This document shows, piece after piece, positions 17,196 through 32,743 of a DNA stretch of 33,110 bases. The translations under genes were made by a program, and so were the position numbers. Under the pieces are notes generated by a model, which saw only the letters and a list, made by a program, of their open reading frames with translations, was not told the origin of the DNA and did no database searches. The stretch spans positions 1 through 33,110 of IMG/VR virus record IMGVR_UViG_3300010362_000066. One strand, 5' to 3'. Within the stretch, counting starts at the first letter, position 1. Each line of letters opens with the position of its first letter. Source of the DNA: a virus (lineage: Duplodnaviria > Caudoviricetes).

Positions 17196-20100
17196 ATGGC
17201 CGGCAATCCTTTCGACGAGCAACTCGAGCAACTCACCGACGAGGAGAAGAAACAGAACCCGTTTCTCGAGGGGGCATTCCAAATCCGGGCGGCCGAAGAA
17301 GCGGCGCTCAAGACGTCCTTCAACGTCGGCGGCAACGTCTCGCCGGACCACGCCGCAGCCATTCTGAAAATCTCGCGCGAGACAGGCGCGCCGGAAGGCC
17401 TCGTCACGCGCCGCTACGATACCTTCCGGCGCCAAGTCGACAGCGACCAGGCCCACCGCGATGCCAAGGACACGCGCACCCTCGCCGACTGGCTCGGGAA
17501 TCCGACGAATGCCGCCGTCGCGCACGATGATGTGCCCACGCTCGCCGGCATGGAGCGGAGCCTCACGCTCGGCAGCAAGGCGACGAAGCCGTCACCGGAG
17601 GCGCAGCGCTTGTCGCGCTTGCTGGGGCAACTGCCGCTCAGCGACCTGACCGCGCAAATGGTATCGGCGGCCGCGAGTCAGAGCACGCCAACCGCCGACT
17701 TGATCACGCCCGGCAACATCGACCTCTTCGCGCAACCGCGCGTCCGCAACGCCGATGGCAGCATCAGCACCGTCGACAGCATCGGTGTCGAGCTCGATGG
17801 GAAGGAAGTGCTGTTGCCGACAGTCACACCGGACGGCCGGCACTTCGTCGGTGATCCGCAAGTCGTCCAGCAGCAGGCGGTCGACGAGTATCGGAAGACG
17901 GGCCAACACCTCGGCATCTTCCGCACCGCCGCCGCCTCAGACGCATACGCTGAGCGGCTCCATCGTCAGTATGCGGCCGGTGTCTACGATCAACCCGACC
18001 CGATGAAAGAGCCGGCGGCCCTCCGCGTGCCGGCGAACATCGCGCGGTCGACCGGCGCCGGCCTCATCGGCGGCGGCTACGGCAACATCGCCGGCGCCGT
18101 GCAAATGCTGGCGGACGTCTACAGCGAGGCGCGCCGCGACATCGGCGATGTGTTCGCGCACATTCGGTCCTTCCCGTCGATCGCGTTTCAAGGCTGGGCG
18201 CCGCCAGCAGCGCCGCAGAAAACGACCATCGGCGAGCTCGCCAAGCGCGAGGCGGAACGTGGCGAACGAGTCGCGCAAGCGCTCGGCCCGCCGCCGGCGA
18301 AGTACGGCTACGTCGAGCAACAGGTCTACAGCGGCTTTGAATCCGTCGGCGCGAACCTCCCAGGCATGGTCGCCGGCGTCCTCACGGCCAACCCGGAGCT
18401 CGGCCTCGGCCTGATGGGCGCCTCGAGCACGGGCGGGGCGTACCGGCAGGCGCGCAAAGAAGGCCTCGACGTCTACGAGGCGGCGGCGTTCGGCGGTCTG
18501 CAAGGGACGATCGAGGTCGCGACCGAAGGCCTGCCGATGCACTACTTCGTCGAGGACCTCACGCACAACGCGCCGCTGCGGAAACTGATCGTCCACCAAC
18601 TCGCGACCGAGCTACCGGGCGAGGAGATCGCGACCCTGTTGCAGGACCTAGTGGAGTGGGGCGAGCTCCCGTCGAACAAAGACAAGACGTTCGCTGACTA
18701 CCTCTGGGCACGGCCCGAACGCGCGGTCGCAACGGCGATCAGCACGATTGTCATGATCGGCACGTCGAGCATCGGCGGGCACGCCGCGAAGGCGGTTTTC
18801 GATCGGCTCGGCGCCGACGCGCAGAACTCCAACACGCTGAAGCGGGACCCCGCCTCCGTCGATGCGCTGATGACGCAGGCCGGCATCGCCACTGGCGTGA
18901 CGCACGTCTACGCGCCGACCGAGACGTTCACGACGTTCTATCAAGAACAAGGCATCGACCCGCGCGCGAAAGCGACCGAACTCACCGGCGACCCGACGGC
19001 GTATGACCGCGCCGTCGATCAAGGGCAAGACCTCCCGATTCCGATCGGCGCGTACGTGACCAAGATCGCCTCGGACCCGGTCGCGAATGCGTTCTTCTCG
19101 AATGAGTTCCGGCTCGACCCCAGCGAGCAGAACCGTCGCGAGCGTCTGGCGAGTCGCGAGGCGATGACCGAAGCGGCCGCGGCCGGCACCAAGACCGCCG
19201 ACGCCGACAAGAACGAACCGGTGCGGCTCGCGATTCGGGACCAACTCGAGGCGAGTGGCTACACGCCCGAAGTGGCCGACTTTCAGTCGCGCTTCTTCTT
19301 GCGCGTGTTCACGCGCTTGGCCGCGCGCGAGAAGGTCAATGCCGCGGACCTCTTCGCGCGCTACGGCCTCCGCATCGAGCGGCCCGACCTCCAGGCGCCG
19401 GAGCTCCGCGAGGCGCTCGAACGCGTGCGGACAGCCGCTGCGGAAGGGCGCACCGACCACCTCCAAGACCTCGCGAAGCATCCGGACAAGCAGGTCGCCG
19501 CGGCCGCCGAGGCCGCGCTGAAAGTCATGCAGGCGCAAGGCACCGACATCGCCGGCGCGCAAGTCGCGACGTCGATGAAGGATGAATCCATCGAGCGCCT
19601 GCGTGAGGTCGCCTCGAGTTCGGACCCAGTGCAGGCCGAGGCCGCACGCAACGAACTCACGACGCGCGAGATGCTGCCGCCGACACCCACGATCGAGCCT
19701 GGCGCGCCGGTGGGCGAAACCGTCGCCGCCGAAGCGCCGCCTGCGGCGGAAACGATCCCGCCGGCGCCGACCGGTCTGTCGCCAGAGGTCGAAGCGTATG
19801 TCGCCGCCATCCGCGCGCGCGCCGAACAGGCCGAAGCCGCGCGCGCGGCCGCCGAACGCGAAACCGCGCAGGAACGCGGCGAACGGCGCAAAGAAGAACG
19901 GCGCGCGATGACCGATCCGCTCACCGGCTTAGGTAGTCGCCGCGCCTACGATGCCGCGCTCAAGTCCGTCGAGGCCGATCCGAACATGGCCGTGATCGTG
20001 TTCGACGGCAATAATTTCGGCGCCGTCAACAAAGTTGCACAGAATCTCGGCGGCGGCCAGGAAGCCGGCGATGCGATAATCAAAGCGGGCGCGGACGCCG

Positions 20101-23100
20101 TCAAGCAGGCGGCTACTGAGTTTGGGTATGGCGCGCGCGTCTTCCGTCGGGGCGGCGATGAGTTCGTCGTCTTCGCTCCGCATGAATTCAAAGAGGCGAT
20201 TCGGCTTCGCGCCGAGCAACTCTTCACGCCTCGCGAATTCACGAAAGAGAACGGCGACACCTTCGAGGTGTCGCTCAGCGGATCGCACGGCAACACGTTT
20301 GCCGAAGCCGATGCGATCCTTCAAGCGGCTAAAGCCGAACGAAAGGCCCAGTATGCCCCTCGACCTCCGGCGAGTCGACCAACTGATCGCCTCCGGATCT
20401 CCCGTGAGAGCGGCGTTCCGCCAAGCCGCCCGCGAGAACGCGAAACGCCTGCGGGCCGCGAACGACGCAAGAGTCAACACCTGGATGCAGTCTTTGATGA
20501 ACTCCTCGGCTACGCCCGCGAACTCGACCCCACCGTCGACCCCGCCGCCCTCCGCGCCGAATTCGACTACCGAATAAACGCGCTTGAAGAGCGCGAAGCC
20601 GCGGTGCGTGGCGATGACGTGCCCACGCCGCGCGGCCTGCTTGAGGCGGTCGCGAAGCTCGGCGGCATCGGCGACGATCCTACGTTCCCTGGCGAACTGA
20701 AGTGGCTGAAGGAGGGGCAGACCTTCGGTCGCGTGCAGGGTGTGCGTGGCGTGTTCCAGAAGACCACGCAGGACGCGCGTGGCGTGCGCCAGACGGGCCA
20801 TAGCCTCGACGGCATGCTGGAACTGCTCCGGCAGGACCCGCGCTTCGCCGGCCTGCAGAACATCAACCACCTGATCGACGCGATCGACGATGCCATCCGG
20901 CATCCGCTCGAGGACGAGGGCGGCACGTTTCCCAGCACCGCCGAGTATGCGGCCGACCTGCAGATGTGGCCGGACGAGACGTGGTGGGAGGACTCCTGGC
21001 AGCGTCAGCCGGCGGCCGCCGAGCTCGCCGCCGCAGCGCCAGAGGGCATGCTCGAGCAGCGCCGGCCGCGCAAACAACCATCATTGCGCCGCGGCCAGAC
21101 CGTCCAACAGAACATCTACGGTGACCAGCGCTGGCACGTCGTCAACGCTCGGGGCGAATGGGGCCGCCAGAGCTACGCGACAGAGGCCGAGGCGCGCGCG
21201 GCCATGCTCGAGCCGCCCCGCGCGCCGAAAACGGGCGAGGGCGAACCTTACGAAACGGCCGCCGTTCACATCACGACGCCGGGCGGGCTGGCCGGCATTC
21301 GTGCGACGGGCTTCGATGTCGCGCGTGGCGGCGGCCTTGGCGGCGATACCTACGGCCCTGGGATCTATCTCGCCGACCGTTCCAGCGATGCGGCCAGCTT
21401 CTGGCGGGAGCAACTTCGCACGCGCGAGGCGTCGGGCGAGATCGAGACGACAGCGCTGCCGGCGCAAGTCAGGCTCCAGAACGCGCTGGTCGTCGAGGAC
21501 ATGCGCCCAGTCGGCGGCCGATACGGCGGCGACCTCATGCGCCAGCTCGACCGGCGCGACATCGTCGCCAAGCAGATGCCGGACCAACTCGCGCGGTTCG
21601 ATGAACTCGTCAAGCAGCACGACGGCTCAGAGAACCAGGCCCTCGGCCAACTCGCGCGCGAGAACGGCTACGACGGGCTCGTCTTCGAGCGCCGCCTCGG
21701 CACTGAGATCATCGCGTTCGATCCCAAGTCCGTCACGTTCGAGGGCGTAACGCCGCCAGCAGCCGAGGACGTGCTCCCGACCGGCGAAGTGCAACCTCGG
21801 TTGCCGGGGGCCGAGCCGGTCCGCGAGCAAGAGATCGCCACGCCACAAGTCGCCGAGGCGCAGTTCGCGCTCACGCCGCCGCCGGCGAAGCCGACGACGC
21901 CGGACCAGGGCACGCTGTTCCAGATGGCCGATGCGGCGACGGCCGTCGAGAACGTGGCCGCACTGGATGCGATGTTGCCCGTCGCCCGCGAGGGCAACTT
22001 CCCGAAGCGGCGTGATCTCAAAGTCCACATGCAGGAACTGGTGCGGCAGGCCGCCAAGGAGGCCGGCGCAAGTGTCGATCCGAGCACGCCTGAAGGGCAC
22101 GCCTACCTCGTCGGCATCGCGCTGCGCGATGTGCTCACCAGCCTCGGCTCGAATCCGAACGCCGTCGGCTGGTACGACGAGAAGACGCAGCAGGCGCTCG
22201 CCGTCGCCGCGCTGATTCATCCCGAACTCGAGCACGATGAGAACGCGCGCTTCGCCTTCACCTACGCGCTGGCGATTCATTCCAACGGTCTGCCCGTCAA
22301 TCAGAACTTCCAGATCGCGGATGCGGCCTACGAGGTCTACCGCAAGACGGGCCAAATGCCCTCGAACCTCGGCATCGGGGCGGCCCGTCAGCAGATCCGT
22401 CAGGCGGCTGAACTCTTCAACGAGCGCGTGCAGCAATGGGGCCTCGATACGTTCCGCAAGTTCATGCTCAGTGAGTTCACGGTCAGCGAACTCCGGCGGC
22501 TCGGCGAGGATGTGAACGGCGAGGCGGCGAGCGCGGTAGTGCGCGGCGCGGCCGTCATCGGGCCGAAGATCGGCAACGGGTTCTTCTCGAACCTCAATGG
22601 CTTCTTTGATGCGCTGACGATGGACCGCTGGCTGATGCGGACCTGGGGGCGCTGGACTGGGACGCTGCTGTTCGACAACGAGGCGCTCGTCCGCAAGAAG
22701 CGCGGCGAGTTACGGGACAGTGTGCGCCAGTTACTCGCGCGCGCCCCAGCGCAGGCGCGTGTCTTCGGCGAGGCGGTCGGGATCAATCTCGCCACGGTGC
22801 GGAAGCCGAAGGACATCGATGCGCTCGGACATGCCATTCGGAAGGCCAGCGCCGATCCGAACGTGCGCGCCGTCATGGCCGGCACGTCATGGGGCGATGC
22901 CGTCCGGCGTCACGGCAACATGCTCGGCGCGCATCTCGACGGACAAAAGGAGGCACCGGCCAATCCAGTCGAGCGTTCACAGATCCGCGCAGTATTTAGC
23001 GACGTCCTCGCCGAGCTCCAGCATCTCGGCTACACTGGAATGACGACGGCGGATTTACAGGCGCTGCTCTGGTATGCGGAGAAGCGGCTGTACGATGCCG

Positions 23101-26100
23101 GCACCTCGGAGAATGAGGTCGCGCAAGGCTACGAAGATTCCGAGGCACCAGACTATGCGAACGCGGCAAGCGCGCTCGCCCGTTCCAAGGGGATTAGCGA
23201 CGATGAAATCAACGCCACGCTTGCAAGAGTTACTCAGTCAACCGGTCGCGCCGATGACCGCGCAGGAGTTAGCGGACGAGCAGTTCCTGCAGCGGAAGCC
23301 GCGGAGCCCGGCGCAGGGCCAGCAGGACAAGCAGTTGGTCGAGGCTTTGCTCCAGCGGAACGAGAAGCCTTCCTCGCCCGCTACGCCAAAGCCCCCCACC
23401 ACGGAGCCGTCCATCTAACGCCCACGCTCGAGCGCGAAGCCCGCGCCGAGCCTGCCCGCATCCCCGGCAGCAGCAACCTCGGCACCTTCTTCCAATCGCT
23501 CCTAGACGCGGTCGACGAACAGACCGGCGCCCCGTTCTATTCCCGCCTGCAGCGCGCGGTCGAAACCTCCCAACAAGCGAAGGCGAGCGGCGCCCAGTGG
23601 AAGGCGACGATCAAGAACGCGAAGGTCGGCATCAATCGCGACGAGTACGCGCTCACCAGAGTCGAGGACCTCGAGGACGGCAAGACGTACACGAAGCAGG
23701 AAGTCCTCGACTACCTGAAACAGAACGCCGTGCAGGTCGAGACGCGCGTGCTCGGCGAACAGGCGGGCCCGTCCAAGGAGGCGATCCACCAACGGCGTCA
23801 GGCCATCTACGAAGGGTGGGTCGATGAGAAGGTCCAAGAGATTGAGGAGTATCGGGGCGGGCCGCCAGAGCTACCCACGCCGGAAACCGACGTTGGCTAC
23901 AACAAGGACGAGGGCGGATGGGAAGCGGCGGTCGATGGTGACGACCTCGGGTTTATCTACGACAGCCAGGAAGAAGCGCAGCAGGCGGCTGACGCAGAAG
24001 CGCAGAAGCGCCTTGAGAAAGATGAGCAAGACCTCCGAGAGGCTCTGCGCGACCATGCCCAATCGTTGTTGCCGCCCGATGCCTGGGACGAAGCCTTAAC
24101 GCAGGCCGAGCAAGAACTCGGCGCCGACCAAGCAGGTTCACGCTATGGCGAGTACGTCGAACCGGGCGGCGAACCTGGCTCCTATCGCGAGGTCTTCCTC
24201 ACGGCACCTGAGGCGGCCGCGACCGACAACGGGCAACAGTGGCAAGACGGCCATGAGGAGTACGGCGATATTGAGAACCCGATCGTGCGGTTGCGCTACA
24301 ACATTCGCACGACGGCCGACGGCCAGCGCGTGCTCTTCCTCGAGGAGGTGCAGCCGCCGCATGAGGACGAGCAGAAGCGAATGCCGGAGCTCTTCCGCAA
24401 AAACTGGCGCGAGATGGCGTTCAAGTACGCGCTCCGCATTGCCGCCGAGCAGGGCCTCGACGGGGTGACGTGGACACGCGGTGAACAGCAGGCGCAGCGC
24501 TATCGGCTTGAGCAGGTCGTGCAGAAGATCGACTGGACGCCGCTGACTGAACAAGAGCACGGCTTGGAGGGCAAGCACGTCATCATCAACACGCGGCGCG
24601 GGCTCATGGGCCTGATTGTGGAGCCCAACGGTCGGATAGCCGATACGCGAGCGCAAGCACCGGACGACTGGGTCGGCCGATCACTCGCCGATGTGATCGG
24701 CAAGGAACTCGCCTCGCAGGTTGTCGAAGGCGAGGCCCGTGGCGAAATCAGCGGCGAGGGTCTGAAGATCGGCGGCGAGGGCTTAAAGAAACTCTACGAC
24801 GTCGACTTCCGCAACGTCGTGAACAGCCTTCCGGCGGTCAAGCGCAGCGGGGCCAAGGTCGAGCGGCTCATCGTCAGCGAGCTCGGCACCGAAGGCCGCA
24901 TCACCAAGCAATTAGACGAACTCCACGAAGAGATGCAGCGTGAGCGGGCATACGGGCGGATGACGGAATCGATGGAGAACGTCTATCAGCGGCGCGAGCG
25001 CGAGCTCATGGCCTCACTCGCCGTCGCCGGGCTGGAAGGGGAACGCGAGACGAATCAAGGCGTGATGTTCACGCCTGAGCTCCGCGAGGCCGTCATGGGC
25101 GGCCAGACCTTGTTCCAGCGCGAGGGCGATGAGGGCGAGGCCGGCGCGGCCGCCCCGCCGGCCGAAGGCGCCGCGCCGACCGCACCACCACCAGGGCAGA
25201 CGGCGCGCGGTGGGTATTCGCGGCTCGCCTCAGGCCGCCTCATTCAACTGTTCGAGCAAGCCAACTTCTCGACGTTCCTCCATGAGACGGCGCACTTCTA
25301 CTTCGATGTCATGGCGGACTTGGCCGCGCGTCCCGATGCCTCGCCGGAGCTCCAGCGCGACATGGCAACCATCTTCAAATGGATCGGCCATGAGGGTGAC
25401 ATCCACGCGTGGCAGGCGCTCAGTCTCAACGAGCAGCGCGAGGGGCACGAGAAATTCGCAGACGGGTTCAACGCGTACCTGATGGAAGGCAAGGCGCCGA
25501 GTCTGCAGATGCAGACGATCTTCGATCGCTTCCGCGGCTGGCTGCTCGACATCTACAAAGCGGTCGAGGCCCTCGGCGTCAATCTCACGCCAGACGTTCG
25601 CGACGTCTTCGACCGGATGATCGCGACCGACCAGGAGGTCGCCGACGCTGAGCAGGCGCGCGACGTCCCGCCGCTGTTCTTGACACCCGAGCAGGCCGGC
25701 GTCTCGCGCGAACGGTTCGAGCACTATCGCCAGAAACTTGAGGACGCCTCCCGCCAAAGTCGCGAACGGCTCGAGAAGAAGGCGCTCGAGGATGTGCGCC
25801 GGCGCCAGACGGCCGAATGGCAAGCGCGCCGCGCGACGACCGAGACGCAGGTCCGCAGCGAGCTCGCCACGCAACCCGCCTACATCGCCCTGACGGCCAT
25901 GCAACGCGGCACGACGCCGGAGGGCGCGCCGCTGGTCGAGGGCCTCGAGGTCCGGCCGCAGAAACTCTCGCGCAAACTGCTGGCCGAGCGGTTCGGCGAA
26001 GAACGCGTCAAGCAACTCCGCGAGATCCCTGGTCCGTTGATCTACACCCGCGACGAACAGGGGCTTGATCCGGATTTGCTCGCCGAGCTCTACGGCTTCT

Positions 26101-29100
26101 CGAGTACCGATGAAATGCTCAAGGCCGTCCAGGCGGTGCTGCCCTACGAGCAAGCCGTCACCGCCGAAACCGACCGCCGGATGAAGGCGCAGTACGGCGA
26201 ACAGCCCGTCGAGAACCAACTCACCGACGCCTCGCGTGCCGCGCTGATGCACGACTCGCGTGAGGAGATTATTCGCGACGAACTCCGGATGCTCGCGCAA
26301 CTCCGGCAACGCAACGCCCGCGGCGAAGCGCGCGCCGACCTCGCGCAACAACGCGCGAACCAAGCCTACGAGCGCCGCTGGTTCGAGGCGGAAGCGCGTC
26401 TGCGGATCGCGATTGCGGAAGGCCGGAAGCAATCCGAGATCGATACGCTGCGCGACCAGCTCCGCACGCTGAAGGGGGAGGCCCGCGGCGGCGCGGCGCG
26501 CATCAATGCCGCGTTGCCCTCGGCCAAAGAGATCCGGTCCTACGCGCAGGCGACGATCAACGGGATGCTCGTCCGCGACATTCGACCCGACATCTACTGG
26601 GCGGCCGCGCGCAAAGCGGGCAAGGCGGCGGTCGACCACGCCGCCCGCCAGAATTTCGACGAAGCCATTAAGGCCAAGCAGCAGGAGCTCCTCAACACCG
26701 CGCTCTATCGCGAGGCCACGCGCGTGCTCGAGGAAGTGAACGCGCGGGCCCTGGCGGCACGGGACCTCGGCCGCGGGCCGGCGCGCGCGCGGTTGGGGCT
26801 CGCCGGCGAGACGTATCTGGATCAGGTCGACGGCATCCTCGACCGCTACGAATTCGCGCGGGTATCGAACAAGGTGCTCGAGCGCCGCGCCAGCATTCGC
26901 GCGTGGGTCGCCGCGATGCAAGGCGAGAACATGCCGGTCGAACTCCCCGAACTCGTCCTCGAGGAGGCCCACCGCAAGAACTACCGCGAGCTCACGGTCG
27001 AGCAGTTCATGGCGGTGACCGACGGCCTCGCGCAGATCGCGCACTTGGCGCAACTGAAGAACAAACTGCTGACCGCGAAGAAGCAGCGCGACTTCCAGAC
27101 GACGCGCGACGGCATCGTCGACCACATCGAGCAGCACGGGAAAGCGCGCCCGAAACCGATCGCGATCCGGATCAGCGATGCGCCGGCGCGCAAGGTCGGC
27201 GAGTGGATCGCCTCGCATACCAAGCTCGCCGAATTCATCGCGCGCCTCGACGGCTACGTCCAGGGCGGCCCGATGTGGACGGCGATCATGAAACCGCTGA
27301 ACGAAGCAGCGACACGGGCCGCCGTCATACAAGAGCGAGCCGCGCAGCGGCTCAGCGAGATTCTGACCACGGCGTACAGCGGCGCCGAGGTCGCTGCACT
27401 CCGCGGACCGAGCGCGAAACAGAAGGCGCTCGGGCTGGGCAAGGACACGCTGCTCTTCATTCCGGCGATCAACGCGAGCCTCACGAAAGAAGAGCGCCTC
27501 GCGGTCGCGCTCAACTGGGGCAATGCCGGCAACCGACAGCGGCTGATGGAGTCGGGCCGCAACTGGAACGAGACGCAGGTCCAGGCGATTCTCAACACGC
27601 TCGACGAGCGCGACCTGAAGTTCGTTCAGGACACGCTCGACTACATCAACTCGTTCTGGCCCCAGATCGAAGCGCAGGACCGCCGCCTCAAAGGCCTGCC
27701 GCCGGACAAGGTCGAGCCGGCGTCGTGGGTGCATCCGCAGTTCGGCGAACAGCGTGGCGGCTACTACCCGATCGCCTATGACGGACGGCTCTCCGTCCGC
27801 GCTGACCAACTGATCAACGCCGGCGAGGCGAATCTGCAGGCGCACGCGGCGTATGCGTACGCGACCACGCGTCATGGCTACACCAAAGAGCGCCAGGCCA
27901 AGGTCAACCAACCGGTCCGTCTCGAGCTCAGCGTGATGTACGAGCACCTCGAGCAGATCATTCATTCGCTGTCGCATCGCGAAGTGATGATCGACGTCGG
28001 CCGACTGCTCGCCGATCGGAAGATCCAAGACGCCATCGTGTCGCGCGAGGGCGACCTCGGCTACAAGGCGATGCGCGACAACCTCCTCGACATCGCGCTC
28101 GGGACGCAGCACGCCACGAACATCGTCGACCGGGCGATGACCTATCTTCGCAACGGCGGCACGCTCGCCGGCCTCGGCTGGAACGTGTGGACGGCAGTGC
28201 AACAACCGATCGGCATCCTGAACGGGGCGGTCATCAACGGGCCCGTGTGGCAGGCGCGTGGCCTGATGCGCTTCCTGCGCGACACCAGCACGATGGAGTG
28301 GAGCTCGCAGTGGGTGTACGCGAAGTCCGAGATGATGCGCCTGCGCGGGCAGACGGCGAACCGCGACATCGCCGAGATGCGGAATTCGCTCACCCGCAGC
28401 GGGTCTTGGTTCGACAACATCCTGCGAACCGTGAGCGGCGACCGCCTCGAGCGCGAGGACATCACCAACAGTTACCTCGCGCTGATTGAGCTCGGGCAGA
28501 AGATGGCCGACATCCCGACGTGGATCGGCGCCTACGAGCGGCACCGTAGCGCCGGTGAAACAGAGGAGCGGGCGACGGCGCTCGCCGACCAGGCGGTGCT
28601 CGATGCCCAGAGCGGCGGCCAGATGAAGGACCTCGCGAAAGTGCAGCGCGGCTCGCCGGCGTTCAAGCTGTTCACGATGTTCTACAGCTACGGCAACCTG
28701 ATGTTCAACCAGACGGTGCGCGTGTATGGGCGCGACTGGGTGCATGGCGGCTCGGTCGGCCAGATGCTCGGCAACCTGTCGCTGCTCTACATCGCGCCGG
28801 CGGCGCTCACCGTCGCACTCGCGAAGGCCTTCGGCAAGGGTGACGACAAGGAGCCGTGGTACCTCGCGATGGGCAAAGAGGTCCTCGCGACCGCCATGAA
28901 CATGATGGTGTGGGTGCGCGAGTTCGGTCCGCTCGCCACTGGGCGCACGGGCGGGCGCGGGTACGAAGGCCCGAGCGGCACCCGCTTCGTCTCGAGCGTC
29001 TACAAACTCGGGCAACAGATTGAGCAGGGCAAAGCCGACCGTGGCCTCGTCCGCGCGACCGAGGACGTGGCGAGCATTCTCTTCAAGCTGCCGCTCGGCC

Positions 29101-29204
29101 AAGTGCAACGCTCGATCGATGGCTTCGTCGCGATTCAGGAAGGCAAGACCAAGAACCCGCTGGTCATCTTGACTGGCGCGCCTGCCAAGAAGAAAGCGAG
29201 TTAA
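17196..29204 (+). CDS. Giant (4002 aa) polyvalent ejection protein with GGDEF, ART-like, HhH-GPD-like and HExxH peptidase domains
   Basis: Uninterrupted ORF in the T7 gp16 position; LPD22-like N-terminus (NPTNAAVAHDDV); STFLHETAH; GGYYPIAYD and FTMFYSY in the conserved C-terminal core. Confidence 0.9.
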   Translation: MAGNPFDEQLEQLTDEEKKQNPFLEGAFQIRAAEEAALKTSFNVGGNVSPDHAAAILKISRETGAPEGLVTRRYDTFRRQVDSDQAHRDAKDTRTLADWLGNPTNAAVAHDDVPTLAGMERSLTLGSKATKPSPEAQRLSRLLGQLPLSDLTAQMVSAAASQSTPTADLITPGNIDLFAQPRVRNADGSISTVDSIGVELDGKEVLLPTVTPDGRHFVGDPQVVQQQAVDEYRKTGQHLGIFRTAAASDAYAERLHRQYAAGVYDQPDPMKEPAALRVPANIARSTGAGLIGGGYGNIAGAVQMLADVYSEARRDIGDVFAHIRSFPSIAFQGWAPPAAPQKTTIGELAKREAERGERVAQALGPPPAKYGYVEQQVYSGFESVGANLPGMVAGVLTANPELGLGLMGASSTGGAYRQARKEGLDVYEAAAFGGLQGTIEVATEGLPMHYFVEDLTHNAPLRKLIVHQLATELPGEEIATLLQDLVEWGELPSNKDKTFADYLWARPERAVATAISTIVMIGTSSIGGHAAKAVFDRLGADAQNSNTLKRDPASVDALMTQAGIATGVTHVYAPTETFTTFYQEQGIDPRAKATELTGDPTAYDRAVDQGQDLPIPIGAYVTKIASDPVANAFFSNEFRLDPSEQNRRERLASREAMTEAAAAGTKTADADKNEPVRLAIRDQLEASGYTPEVADFQSRFFLRVFTRLAAREKVNAADLFARYGLRIERPDLQAPELREALERVRTAAAEGRTDHLQDLAKHPDKQVAAAAEAALKVMQAQGTDIAGAQVATSMKDESIERLREVASSSDPVQAEAARNELTTREMLPPTPTIEPGAPVGETVAAEAPPAAETIPPAPTGLSPEVEAYVAAIRARAEQAEAARAAAERETAQERGERRKEERRAMTDPLTGLGSRRAYDAALKSVEADPNMAVIVFDGNNFGAVNKVAQNLGGGQEAGDAIIKAGADAVKQAATEFGYGARVFRRGGDEFVVFAPHEFKEAIRLRAEQLFTPREFTKENGDTFEVSLSGSHGNTFAEADAILQAAKAERKAQYAPRPPASRPTDRLRISRESGVPPSRPRERETPAGRERRKSQHLDAVFDELLGYARELDPTVDPAALRAEFDYRINALEEREAAVRGDDVPTPRGLLEAVAKLGGIGDDPTFPGELKWLKEGQTFGRVQGVRGVFQKTTQDARGVRQTGHSLDGMLELLRQDPRFAGLQNINHLIDAIDDAIRHPLEDEGGTFPSTAEYAADLQMWPDETWWEDSWQRQPAAAELAAAAPEGMLEQRRPRKQPSLRRGQTVQQNIYGDQRWHVVNARGEWGRQSYATEAEARAAMLEPPRAPKTGEGEPYETAAVHITTPGGLAGIRATGFDVARGGGLGGDTYGPGIYLADRSSDAASFWREQLRTREASGEIETTALPAQVRLQNALVVEDMRPVGGRYGGDLMRQLDRRDIVAKQMPDQLARFDELVKQHDGSENQALGQLARENGYDGLVFERRLGTEIIAFDPKSVTFEGVTPPAAEDVLPTGEVQPRLPGAEPVREQEIATPQVAEAQFALTPPPAKPTTPDQGTLFQMADAATAVENVAALDAMLPVAREGNFPKRRDLKVHMQELVRQAAKEAGASVDPSTPEGHAYLVGIALRDVLTSLGSNPNAVGWYDEKTQQALAVAALIHPELEHDENARFAFTYALAIHSNGLPVNQNFQIADAAYEVYRKTGQMPSNLGIGAARQQIRQAAELFNERVQQWGLDTFRKFMLSEFTVSELRRLGEDVNGEAASAVVRGAAVIGPKIGNGFFSNLNGFFDALTMDRWLMRTWGRWTGTLLFDNEALVRKKRGELRDSVRQLLARAPAQARVFGEAVGINLATVRKPKDIDALGHAIRKASADPNVRAVMAGTSWGDAVRRHGNMLGAHLDGQKEAPANPVERSQIRAVFSDVLAELQHLGYTGMTTADLQALLWYAEKRLYDAGTSENEVAQGYEDSEAPDYANAASALARSKGISDDEINATLARVTQSTGRADDRAGVSGRAVPAAEAAEPGAGPAGQAVGRGFAPAEREAFLARYAKAPHHGAVHLTPTLEREARAEPARIPGSSNLGTFFQSLLDAVDEQTGAPFYSRLQRAVETSQQAKASGAQWKATIKNAKVGINRDEYALTRVEDLEDGKTYTKQEVLDYLKQNAVQVETRVLGEQAGPSKEAIHQRRQAIYEGWVDEKVQEIEEYRGGPPELPTPETDVGYNKDEGGWEAAVDGDDLGFIYDSQEEAQQAADAEAQKRLEKDEQDLREALRDHAQSLLPPDAWDEALTQAEQELGADQAGSRYGEYVEPGGEPGSYREVFLTAPEAAATDNGQQWQDGHEEYGDIENPIVRLRYNIRTTADGQRVLFLEEVQPPHEDEQKRMPELFRKNWREMAFKYALRIAAEQGLDGVTWTRGEQQAQRYRLEQVVQKIDWTPLTEQEHGLEGKHVIINTRRGLMGLIVEPNGRIADTRAQAPDDWVGRSLADVIGKELASQVVEGEARGEISGEGLKIGGEGLKKLYDVDFRNVVNSLPAVKRSGAKVERLIVSELGTEGRITKQLDELHEEMQRERAYGRMTESMENVYQRRERELMASLAVAGLEGERETNQGVMFTPELREAVMGGQTLFQREGDEGEAGAAAPPAEGAAPTAPPPGQTARGGYSRLASGRLIQLFEQANFSTFLHETAHFYFDVMADLAARPDASPELQRDMATIFKWIGHEGDIHAWQALSLNEQREGHEKFADGFNAYLMEGKAPSLQMQTIFDRFRGWLLDIYKAVEALGVNLTPDVRDVFDRMIATDQEVADAEQARDVPPLFLTPEQAGVSRERFEHYRQKLEDASRQSRERLEKKALEDVRRRQTAEWQARRATTETQVRSELATQPAYIALTAMQRGTTPEGAPLVEGLEVRPQKLSRKLLAERFGEERVKQLREIPGPLIYTRDEQGLDPDLLAELYGFSSTDEMLKAVQAVLPYEQAVTAETDRRMKAQYGEQPVENQLTDASRAALMHDSREEIIRDELRMLAQLRQRNARGEARADLAQQRANQAYERRWFEAEARLRIAIAEGRKQSEIDTLRDQLRTLKGEARGGAARINAALPSAKEIRSYAQATINGMLVRDIRPDIYWAAARKAGKAAVDHAARQNFDEAIKAKQQELLNTALYREATRVLEEVNARALAARDLGRGPARARLGLAGETYLDQVDGILDRYEFARVSNKVLERRASIRAWVAAMQGENMPVELPELVLEEAHRKNYRELTVEQFMAVTDGLAQIAHLAQLKNKLLTAKKQRDFQTTRDGIVDHIEQHGKARPKPIAIRISDAPARKVGEWIASHTKLAEFIARLDGYVQGGPMWTAIMKPLNEAATRAAVIQERAAQRLSEILTTAYSGAEVAALRGPSAKQKALGLGKDTLLFIPAINASLTKEERLAVALNWGNAGNRQRLMESGRNWNETQVQAILNTLDERDLKFVQDTLDYINSFWPQIEAQDRRLKGLPPDKVEPASWVHPQFGEQRGGYYPIAYDGRLSVRADQLINAGEANLQAHAAYAYATTRHGYTKERQAKVNQPVRLELSVMYEHLEQIIHSLSHREVMIDVGRLLADRKIQDAIVSREGDLGYKAMRDNLLDIALGTQHATNIVDRAMTYLRNGGTLAGLGWNVWTAVQQPIGILNGAVINGPVWQARGLMRFLRDTSTMEWSSQWVYAKSEMMRLRGQTANRDIAEMRNSLTRSGSWFDNILRTVSGDRLEREDITNSYLALIELGQKMADIPTWIGAYERHRSAGETEERATALADQAVLDAQSGGQMKDLAKVQRGSPAFKLFTMFYSYGNLMFNQTVRVYGRDWVHGGSVGQMLGNLSLLYIAPAALTVALAKAFGKGDDKEPWYLAMGKEVLATAMNMMVWVREFGPLATGRTGGRGYEGPSGTRFVSSVYKLGQQIEQGKADRGLVRATEDVASILFKLPLGQVQRSIDGFVAIQEGKTKNPLVILTGAPAKKKAS
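19908..20345 (+). other. GGDEF (diguanylate cyclase-like) domain within the giant protein
   Basis: TDPLTGLGSRRAY, IVFDGNNFGAVN, GQEAGDAII, FRRGGDEFVV (GGDEF at 20151-20165), VSLSGS. Confidence 0.9.
20353..20577 (+). CDS. Candidate overprinted gene 1 (+1 frame, 74 aa) directly after the GGDEF domain
   Basis: GAAAGG 6 nt before ATG 20353; over 50 codons GC3 is 40/50 in this frame vs 25/50 in the host frame (hand count); MPLDLRRVDQLIASGSPVRAAFRQAARENAKRL. Confidence 0.6.
   Translation: MPLDLRRVDQLIASGSPVRAAFRQAARENAKRLRAANDARVNTWMQSLMNSSATPANSTPPSTPPPSAPNSTTE
21249..21740 (+). other. ADP-ribosyltransferase-like (ART-PolyVal type) domain
   Basis: AVHITT...GFD...YGPGIYLA...A...VRLQNAL...GYDGLVF...TEIIAFDPKSV pattern (H 21267, E 21705). 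Confidence 0.7.
22161..23090 (+). other. HhH-GPD DNA-glycosylase-like domain
   Basis: GWYD..., VIGPKIGNGFFSNL..LTMDRWLMRT (K and D spaced like G.KTA...VDTH..R), C-terminal LQALLWY. Confidence 0.5.
23203..23418 (+). CDS. Candidate overprinted gene 2 (+1 frame, 71 aa) directly after the glycosylase-like domain
   Basis: AAGGGGA 9 nt before ATG 23203; over 50 codons GC3 is 41/50 in this frame vs 19/50 in the host frame (hand count); MKSTPRLQELLSQPVAPMTAQELADEQFLQ. Confidence 0.65.
   Translation: MKSTPRLQELLSQPVAPMTAQELADEQFLQRKPRSPAQGQQDKQLVEALLQRNEKPSSPATPKPPTTEPSI
25203..25620 (+). other. Zincin-like metallopeptidase (MPTase-like) domain
   Basis: ARGGY...IQLFEQANFSTFLHETAH (HExxH at 25281-25295) and downstream HEKFA as candidate third ligand. 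Confidence 0.75.
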
Positions 29205-31411: not shown

Positions 31412-31658
31412 TTGGGCGTACCGTGGGCATGGAACGAGTGAAACCGGGTGTTTTCTGGTGACTTCTGGACAGGTCGTGCTGACCGGCCGGACATAGGAAT
31501 CGGCGATTTTCCTGAGCAATTCGCCAAAGTCGAGGGAAAAAGCTGGTGGACGGCAGGAGGCTCGAACTCCCGACCTCCGCGTTGCGAACGCCCCGCGCGC
31601 GCGCGGATTCGCTCAGCATTAGGCGCGCTTCCGAGTGGCGTTGGGCGTACGGTGGGCA
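31412..31658 (+). repeat. 18-bp direct repeats flanking the att core (candidate integrase arm-type sites)
   Basis: TTGGGCGTACCGTGGGCA at 31412-31429 and TTGGGCGTACGGTGGGCA at 31641-31658 (17/18 identical). Confidence 0.75.
31544..31591 (-). mobile_element. attP core: 3' half of tRNA-Ala(CGC)
   Basis: Minus strand GCG-TTCGCAA-CGCGG-AGGTC-GGGAG-TTCGAGC-CTCCT-GCCGTCC-A-CCA: anticodon CGC, T-arm, U70 and A73 Ala determinants, CCA; 5' half absent; 27 nt downstream of the integrase stop. Confidence 0.88.
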
Positions 31659-32743
31659 CGGGGCCGCTCGGCACGCTTCTTCAGCATGTCCTGCGTGCTC
31701 ATTTCGGTGTAGATCGCGAGCGGCGTGTCCGGCGTTTTCCAGCCGCCGAGCGCCTGCACTTCGGCCGGCGTCCACCGATCGTCGAGAAAGCGCCGTGTCG
31801 TCCCAGTCCGGCGCGTGCCCCAGTGAAACGTGATGCCCCGCTTGGTCCGCCCGTAGGGCACGTCGGCCTCCCGACAGAGATACTCGAGGCGCTGCCGCAC
31901 CGAGCCCGGCCAGTCGCGCGGGTCCTCAGCCTTCCGAAACTTCGGGAAGAGAAACGGGCCGGCGCGCTTCGCCTTCTTGAGCGCCGTGAGGCCGGCGACG
32001 GCGCGCCGCGAGATCGCGAGCGGCACCTCGAGCGGGTCGCCGTTCTTCGTCCACGCGACCCAGAGCGAGCCATCGGCGACGTCGTCCCACTGCAGATCGA
32101 TCAGGTCACCGAGCCGGACGAGGAAGTCGATGCCGAGCACCAGGATCAGGTAGTCCTGGGGGTCGCGCTTGGCGACGGCGAGGAGTTTGCGCTCTTCCAC
32201 TTTGCTCATGATGCGCCGCCGCACTGGCGCCTCGTCGTAGCGCGCCATGCCCTTGAGCGGCGAGGCGGCGAGGTAGGTCGGACACGCCTCGCGCAGCATG
32301 ATCTTGAGGTGATCGACCTCGCGGTTGATCGTCCGGTTCGTCACGCCCGCCGCCGCGCGCCACGTCTGATACTCGTCGACCAGCATCGTCGTGAACCGGG
32401 AGAGCAGGACGTCGTCCCGCTCGTTCACGAAGTAGCGCTCGAGCACCGTCAGGAGCTCGGCCTCGCGGGTCCGGCCGCGGTGCTTCGGCGTCTTGTGCTC
32501 GCGGTACCACGCCGCATACTTGCTGAACCGAATCTGTTCGCGTTCGCGCGGGAGGTTGTAGACGTCAGCGGCGTAGCCGTTGTGGAGTTTGGTGTAGAGC
32601 GCCTCGGCGAGTTTGTAGGAGTCCTTCTGCTGCTGCGTCGTCGTGCCGACGAGGATGTTGGTGTCGACACGCTGCTCGCCGACGGGCGCATTCTCGATCC
32701 AGAGCCGGTAGTACTTCCGTCCCGCCGAGGCCTGCACGCCCAT
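31619..32743 (-). CDS. int: Tyrosine recombinase / phage integrase
   Basis: NRTINRE in the core-binding domain; catalytic R (LVRLGDLIDLQWDDV), K (TKNG), HWGTRR, LGGWKT, Y (LAIY); GAAGGG SD. Confidence 0.92.
   Translation of the reverse strand: MGVQASAGRKYYRLWIENAPVGEQRVDTNILVGTTTQQQKDSYKLAEALYTKLHNGYAADVYNLPREREQIRFSKYAAWYREHKTPKHRGRTREAELLTVLERYFVNERDDVLLSRFTTMLVDEYQTWRAAAGVTNRTINREVDHLKIMLREACPTYLAASPLKGMARYDEAPVRRRIMSKVEERKLLAVAKRDPQDYLILVLGIDFLVRLGDLIDLQWDDVADGSLWVAWTKNGDPLEVPLAISRRAVAGLTALKKAKRAGPFLFPKFRKAEDPRDWPGSVRQRLEYLCREADVPYGRTKRGITFHWGTRRTGTTRRFLDDRWTPAEVQALGGWKTPDTPLAIYTEMSTQDMLKKRAERPRAHRTPNATRKRA

Follow-up and report, generated by a model that had tools for sequence, protein, structure and literature searches.

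Small genes that lie completely within another gene, on the same strand, out of frame and with a start of their own, are known from Rz/Rz1 of phage lambda, E in D of phiX174 and comS in srfAB of Bacillus. In polymorphic toxin-immunity pairs, a small and variable partner gene comes after the enzyme domain, and unrelated partners can occupy one slot. Immunity proteins present acidic surfaces to DNA-acting enzymes, and arrays of orphan immunity genes that lack an enzyme exist. Acidic, mutually unrelated immunity proteins are likewise described in the Rehh preprint (10.64898/2026.09.22.753552). Zhong et al. 2023 (PMC10327210) present Rpn, an in-frame intragenic antitoxin of a bacterial defence gene. 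Polyvalent proteins of phages and conjugative elements were defined by Iyer et al. 2017 (PMC5512222), whose main text proposes cassette-like recombination. Lastly, Dag1 and Dag2 (10.1101/2025.10.29.685425) are HhH conflict glycosylases that act on modified bases.

Here we describe an open reading frame nested in the +1 frame of a giant phage gene, behind a domain that resembles DNA glycosylases. The giant product resembles the class of Iyer et al. 2017 (PMC5512222) in that it is encoded among virion genes and unites several enzymes, with LPD22, GGDEF and ART-like domains, in one protein; the main text of that paper contains neither 'glycosylase' nor 'overlap', and uses 'nested' for a hairpin only. 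The full same-strand, out-of-frame nesting with an own start is that of Rz/Rz1, E/D and comS. In Rz/Rz1 and E/D both frames are functional over the overlap, whereas here the host frame is unconstrained over the core of the peptide, and, unlike in all three systems, the peptide stays with a single domain while the neighbours are shuffled. As in Rpn (PMC10327210), a gene lies within a gene, and its small product blocks an enzyme that damages DNA and is encoded by the same stretch, the inhibition being a proposal in our case. However, RpnS is in frame and represents the toxin's own C-terminus, whereas the present ORF occupies the +1 frame of a phage gene, shares no sequence with the enzyme and does not arise from an in-frame internal start. 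The toxin-immunity pattern is matched by the order of enzyme and small partner, the unrelated partners per slot, the acidic core and an enzyme-free copy; polymorphic toxins carry the toxin domain at the C-terminus and a separate immunity gene, whereas our domain is internal and its partner is read through by the host frame. Like Dag1/Dag2 (10.1101/2025.10.29.685425) and OGG/EndoIII, the domain is predicted to have the HhH fold, with a putative catalytic Lys-Asp pair, and, as in Dag1/Dag2, it would serve conflict and not repair. Those proteins are bacterial anti-phage enzymes used in conflict or repair enzymes, whereas the present domain is phage-borne and has no sequence match in the PDB. A literature search that covered few subscription papers and no supplements yielded no account of genes that lie out of frame within those for polyvalent proteins.

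Results and Discussion

The host gene and its glycosylase-like domain

The window, i.e. the whole stretch of 33,110 nucleotides that was analysed, is a linear virus record (IMGVR_UViG_3300010362_000066) that is about 77% complete. The following features are relevant to the host gene:

17196-29204, plus strand: host gene for a large polyvalent protein of 4002 aa, whose domains include LPD22, GGDEF, an ART-like and an HhH glycosylase-like domain
21954-23219, plus strand: HhH (EndoIII/OGG-like) DNA glycosylase-like domain, host residues 1587-2008
22566-22568 and 22623-22625, plus strand: predicted catalytic Lys (GPKIG) and Asp (TMDRW), 19 residues apart
31619-32743, minus strand: integrase gene

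Several unrelated enzymatic and LPD domains are combined in one chain, which marks the product as a large polyvalent protein; LPD22 and GGDEF scored above the cut-off, and ART-PolyVal below it (E 4e-4). Upstream of the giant gene lie genes for the portal, the major capsid protein and a T7 gp14-like protein, the latter recognised below threshold. The phage is podovirus-like and probably temperate, and from the gene order we infer that the giant protein is part of the virion. The ART-PolyVal-like domain (21240-21749) directly precedes the glycosylase-like domain, and no trough in the host GC content at third codon positions (GC3) is found behind it. The first nested ORF of the giant gene, of 74 aa, is located in the +1 frame after the GGDEF domain (20353-20577). 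Host GC3 drops there to 25/50, the Shine-Dalgarno (SD) pairing is weak (-3.2), and one scan for homologues found none.

The AlphaFold2 model of host residues 1587-2008 has a pLDDT of 94.6. When it was used in an exhaustive VIA structure search, DNA glycosylases made up 19 of the top 22 rows (Z 6.9-10.8, rmsd of about 4), with 3n0u as the best match (Z 10.8, rmsd 4.1, 198 aligned residues); the other three were two queuine-salvage enzymes and PaMx11 gp46. The coherence of this list places the domain in the HhH superfamily, at Z-scores that are modest for a helical protein. No significant match was returned by Foldseek with the domain model, none by a PDB sequence search with the domain, and no useful family match by Pfam and PHROGs for domain or peptide. 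In the Atlas the domain lies near DUF7178 clusters, a lead of low recognition value, and a literature search for 'DUF7178' found no mention of it. An identity as amino acid:DNA transferase was also considered and is not favoured, though conceivable: PaMx11 gp46 ranked 11th (Z 7.8), below glycosylases and within their range. The Lys and the Asp were invariant in all 88 aligned sequences. Their spacing of 19 matches that of the catalytic pair of human OGG1 and of EndoIII, and it is on this spacing that we base a putative catalytic role. Based on these models, the domain is predicted to be a bifunctional glycosylase/lyase.

The nested reading frame and its start signals

Behind, and slightly overlapping, the end of this domain the following features were delineated:

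23187-23193, plus strand: Shine-Dalgarno sequence AAGGGGA, overlying host Lys-Gly codons
23203-23418, plus strand: nested +1-frame gene of 71 aa, inside the 17196-29204 ORF
23254-23292, plus strand: core helix MTAQELADEQ..., with a near-invariant Gln at 23263-23265 (family profile and model)
23308-23361, plus strand: second predicted helix, with the family motif L-E-x-L-L at its end (model)
23364-23418, plus strand: putative passenger tail of the peptide, host frame constrained (pN/pS and codon view)

The first-pass annotation had placed a gene at 23187-23418 and had pointed to AAGGGGA, nine nucleotides and an ATG in the +1 frame. This start element is present exactly as described, with the ATG at 23203. 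The end and the frame of the proposed gene also hold, but the ORF itself begins at 23203, position 23187 being the start of its SD sequence. Likewise, the peptide quoted at the time comprised the first 55 residues correctly and missed the 16 residues that follow before the stop (TAA, 23416-23418), which indeed precedes the TFFQ motif. A complete ORF with its own start signal thus lies in another frame of a longer gene, as in other nested genes. With an anti-SD pairing of -7.6 kcal/mol, the AAGGGGA element is the strongest among those of the ORF's ATGs, and the alternative start at ATG 23254 is weaker. The relative L002 shares the element and the ATG with the window, despite a change of the overlying host residue from Asp to His, and both L001 and L002 encode Leu at the position of ATG 23254. 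We therefore favour ATG 23203 as the start. It should be noted that L001 has no ATG at the position used in the window, and that the SD pairing of its nearest ATG is weak. The nested TAA overlaps a CTA Leu codon of the host frame in all three clade copies, and CTA is rare in the host gene (5 of 343 Leu codons). No sigma-70 promoter was found near the nested ORF, no RNA data set containing it was listed, no start codon for host-frame re-initiation is present at its stop, and one DNA run, possibly the source of the window, contained no variant letters over it.

As for composition, recalculation gave precisely the GC3 values reported before (19/50 in the host frame and 41/50 in the +1 frame), and the described runs of GCA, GGA and GTT codons are present in the host frame. 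Against a gene-wide host GC3 of 0.82, the trough of 19/50 has a binomial P of about 3e-12; the next-lowest 50-codon window, with 25, is the one at the first nested ORF. The +1 GC3 is by definition the GC content at host codon position 1, which ranges from about 26 to 45 per 50 along the whole giant gene, so that the value of 41/50 is little informative by itself. Moreover, SD-like sequences with a +1 ATG also peak just upstream, as a by-product of acidic host codons, and the scarcity of +2 ATGs everywhere weakens the +2 frame as a control. At the level of sequence, it is the comparative evidence that is decisive for the nested gene, and not GC3 or the SD sequence alone.

Conservation of the +1 frame

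Scans of viral, metagenome and genome collections and of annotated records provided 202 anchored loci, with 2 loci lacking the anchor and 9 being too short; two large scans contributed the best 80 of 443 and the best 80 of 575 confirmed stretches. Removal of duplicates resulted in 159 loci, forming 96 clusters at 80% identity. 95 clusters were used, with L201 being dropped because it lacks the Tyr anchor, and with L167, which is identical to the window, representing it. A count of the motif by regular expression (58/95) is partly circular, and profile tests were used in its place.

Conservation among homologues, whose lack the first-pass annotation had named, along with a lack of ribosome footprints, as refuting its proposal, was found to be extensive. 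When six frames of the 95 loci were searched with the family profile, it matched at the expected place in 72 clusters (E≤1), and 19 of these matches were outside the training set, not counting L167. The remaining 23 clusters gave no match at this place, and most of them have a different +1 ORF there. L076 has the same downstream domain as the window and at the usual place a different, acidic +1 ORF that lacks an ATG. In the six frames of the window, the best match to a profile from which the window's clade had been omitted was the nested ORF (E 0.009, the next being 0.96). Independently of the profile, a +1 ATG ORF of at least 60 aa starts at the site in 71/95 clusters, as compared to 0-10 of 94 in six upstream control windows and 10-26 of 73-74 in three downstream ones. 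The stretch is free of stops in 84 of 94 clusters versus 64.9±3.7 expected from synonymous resampling, and SD pairing of -5 or stronger precedes 48/64 starts versus 64/459 control windows. The SD sequence, the start and the open frame are maintained across loci of 32-71% GC. In a profile search of 1.8 billion proteins we obtained 79 matches, 69 of which are not longer than 100 aa and 53 of which have a Met start within 8 residues of the motif. Two more peptides of the clade (P0111 and P0113) were among the predicted proteins, and in the Atlas a family peptide matched unnamed small viral clusters only.

These data also bear on the idea that programmed frameshifting into the +1 frame generates a shorter giant protein with a +1 end, and no separate peptide. 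The window's +1 frame is already open upstream of the ATG, from 23044 onwards, and the database proteins P0008 and P0111 run from the host frame into the +1 frame, which may reflect sequence errors or natural indels. However, 64 of 66 motif-bearing clusters have a start no more than 20 codons away from the core Gln (exactly three codons before it in 26), mostly with an SD sequence, a +1 stop occurs within 25 codons upstream in 36 of these 66, and a copy in the bacterial genome G056 is free-standing with its own SD sequence. We consider frameshifting distinctly improbable.

Selection acts on the nested frame over the core of the peptide

In 20 close pairs, one per cluster, the pN/pS over codons 58-90 past the Trp anchor was 1.15 in the host frame (CI 0.81-1.64), 0.26 in the +1 frame (0.18-0.35) and 0.95 in the +2 frame, while the glycosylase-like domain gave 0.16 in the host frame. 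For the 15 codons of the core helix the values were 2.10 in the host frame and 0.16 in the +1 frame. This is the pattern of purifying selection on the nested frame, with one of the three pairs from the window's clade being mixed. Over codons 60-96, the window and L001 differ at 12/7/3 of 37 host positions 1/2/3, as opposed to 31/25/69 per 120 in the domain. The corresponding pN/pS values for window/L001 were 0.31 (+1) and 2.81 (host), and those for L001/L002 were 0.56 (+1) and 0.96 (host); in the mixed pair, window/L002, the +1 value was 1.35 over codons 60-98 and 0.62 over codons 44-98. Over the last 17 or so codons of the peptide the relation is reversed, with 0.15-0.31 in the host frame versus 1.9-9.4 in the +1 frame. 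These codons look like a passenger tail that is constrained by the host frame, and it is solely here that the host frame is constrained within the overlap. Judged from the substitution patterns, the host frame over the core of the peptide is unconstrained filler.

The first-pass annotation had offered as its alternative the remnant of a captured downstream gene, which is now read through out of frame. A flip in GC3 alone would indeed outlast the death of a gene for a while, and the mixed window-clade pair would fit a dead gene. On the other hand, the +1 pN/pS of 0.16-0.26 in close relatives implies recent purifying selection, and the start signals and openness are retained across the 32-71% GC range. 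A dead remnant is thus very unlikely: capture was probably the right idea, but the gene is still under selection. Taken together, the nested ORF is almost certainly a real gene, as far as sequence comparison can tell.

The peptide is linked to the domain upstream of it

The small gene is consistently adjacent to the enzyme, at the expected place in 72/95 clusters and displaced in two more. In the latter, L074 and L174, no ORF is present at the usual spot, and the motif occurs in the +1 frame about 295 codons past the Tyr anchor and about 260 codons farther than usual, where host GC3 drops to a trough after an inserted domain. These were the only off-target matches of the profile in six frames of the 95 loci. 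Furthermore, the peptides of the window and of L001/L002 are similar despite different downstream domains, which indicates that the peptide tracks the domain upstream. That more nested families exist is suggested by L202 and L203, where further +1 ORFs follow another domain about 260-330 codons past the Tyr anchor; L203 has two of them in tandem. A third +1 module (E-A-L-R-R-L-x-A-R-R) was seen in L043, L060, L064, L074, L180 and L203, before a domain that starts with LAPLEGAP...GPDPR.

A second module (DPI...HPGLTRE...FGF) is present in many relatives. Its occurrence goes along with that of an acetyltransferase-like domain downstream, which we take to be a GNAT domain: 42 have both, 48 neither, and 3 and 2 are discordant, in loci that share ancestry. 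This module, too, is under selection in the +1 frame (pN/pS 0.36, 8 pairs), and the spacer between the modules in the host frame (0.15). In L268 the second module is found with the acetyltransferase-like domain in the absence of the glycosylase, and the cassette of the window ends where the second module would begin. A two-module nested gene is also present, unannotated, in the cultured Limnohabitans phage DC33 (L197:6097-6312; PQ492659.1 27781-27566, minus strand). GenBank assigns DC33 to the Inoviridae, and the available part of the DC33 paper describes a tailed icosahedral phage, with no mention of 'overlap', 'glycosylase' or 'polyvalent' in that part.

The free-standing copy, P0063 (66 aa, profile E 2.4e-11), has a strong SD sequence and is a hypothetical protein in the NCBI annotation. 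It belongs to a train of four SD-led small genes (L289:9910-11831, G056:C1) that has a complete type I R-M operon on one side and an integrase on the other. A glycosylase profile search of the G056 genome gave no match. The neighbour of P0063 resembles a different nested module (E 0.004), so that at least two nested genes without enzyme domains appear to be present in G056. The frame around P0063 still resembles a polyvalent linker (E 1.9e-5), and the train is possibly a decaying polyvalent gene. Plasmids, viral contigs and three samples, each of about 400 genomes, yielded no further orphan copies.

Origin of the nested gene

The host codons at which a +1 gene begins in distal relatives are almost those of the window. 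The host ORF continues for 182-239 nt past the start of the small gene in L183 and in L198-L201, which are plasmid genes, and the long host ORF of L188 ends 17 nt after the small gene's GTG, which represents a plain operon. L198-L201 are glycosylase-like genes that stand alone on megaplasmids of alphaproteobacteria. A +1 ORF overlaps the 3' tail of each, and two of them adjoin a crotonase gene. By its arrangement L188 resembles the two-gene operon that the first-pass annotation had proposed to search for, but its peptide is not detectably homologous to the family of the window. The same applies to the other distal peptides, including the plasmid cases (hhalign probability 0.4), and the series from operon to nested gene is therefore one of position and not of homology.

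The term overprinted gene, as used in the first-pass annotation, is apt for a functional +1 gene, given its position, motif, start signals and purifying selection, and less so for a de novo origin. De novo overprinting of the linker, by a peptide whose function is unrelated to the adjacent enzyme and is directed, for instance, at a host target, could have been cheap, as the -1 frame of a GC3-rich gene would be poor in stops, and no plain operon was found in which the domain is followed by a peptide gene of the same family. It would, however, leave unexplained the constant place after one domain in 72/95 clusters and the retention after displacement, and it fits poorly with the operon-to-nested series and with a host frame that is neutral over the core (pN/pS 1.15-2.1), where overprinting would have this frame constrained. 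De novo overprinting is thus improbable in our view. Capture of a two-gene cassette followed by read-through likely fits better: an enzyme gene and its downstream partner gene would have fused into the polyvalent gene as one cassette, the giant frame now reading through the partner gene as a floppy linker.

A possible inhibitor of the glycosylase-like domain

The model of the peptide contains helices at residues 7-11, 20-30 and 36-53 and no tertiary fold (pLDDT 79.5, pTM 0.34); the folds of both domain and peptide are model predictions. The family core consists of x-A-Q-[QE]-[QE]-[HQ]-[DN] plus L-E-x-L-L. A net acidic core helix was seen in 44 of 53 cases; taken over its whole length, the peptide of the window is not acidic (net +1 over 59 aa).

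On balance, we lean towards the view that the peptide is an inhibitor of the adjacent glycosylase-like domain. This reading is based on the enzyme-then-small-gene geometry, the domain-specific modules, the retention after displacement, the unrelated peptides that share one slot, the mostly acidic core and the orphan copy. The nested gene would be translated from its own ribosome-binding site, such that the same late mRNA would yield both the giant protein and the peptide. The helical peptide would bind and inhibit the glycosylase/lyase domain, so that in the producing cell the DNA of phage and host would be spared. Upon ejection into a new cell, the giant protein would arrive without the inhibitor, and the enzyme would act there. 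Translation, binding, inhibition, toxicity of the enzyme, virion delivery and the origin are what we infer in this scheme. Counting against it are the mixed window/L002 pair, the missing ATG in L001, the 23/95 unmatched clusters, the single free-standing copy, the non-acidic peptide of the window and the ART-like domain without a GC3 trough. In addition, the domain might need no inhibitor, since the related defence glycosylases Dag1/2 act on modified bases.

The peptide could also be real and tied to the domain in another capacity, namely as a chaperone for folding or packaging, as an activator or as a cofactor that targets substrates. The selection and linkage data would fit such roles equally well, and the lack of a stable fold of the peptide alone is expected of a bind-and-fold partner of any sign. 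However, a free-standing copy beside a restriction system, in a genome with no enzyme detected, is hard to square with a chaperone or activator, and unrelated peptides in the same slot resemble the turnover of immunity genes. We regard these roles as less likely than inhibition.

If the peptide and its counterparts are inhibitors, they would account for the safe production, by a phage, of a protein packed with enzymes that attack DNA and proteins. They would also flag harmful effectors among the uncharacterised polyvalent domains, and supply the inhibitor needed for the cloning and study of these domains. Standard annotation overlooks nested genes of this type, as illustrated by the unannotated one in the cultured phage DC33. 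More tentatively, phage polyvalent genes may be strings of enzyme-plus-antidote cassettes, with antidotes in the +1 frame of the linkers and with modules that travel with their domains and fuse when these become neighbours, while bacterial defence islands, such as that of G056, may excise these genes and gather them, free of enzymes, into orphan arrays of antidotes against injected phage effectors. The G056 island hints at a bacterial defence that employs the phage's own antidotes.
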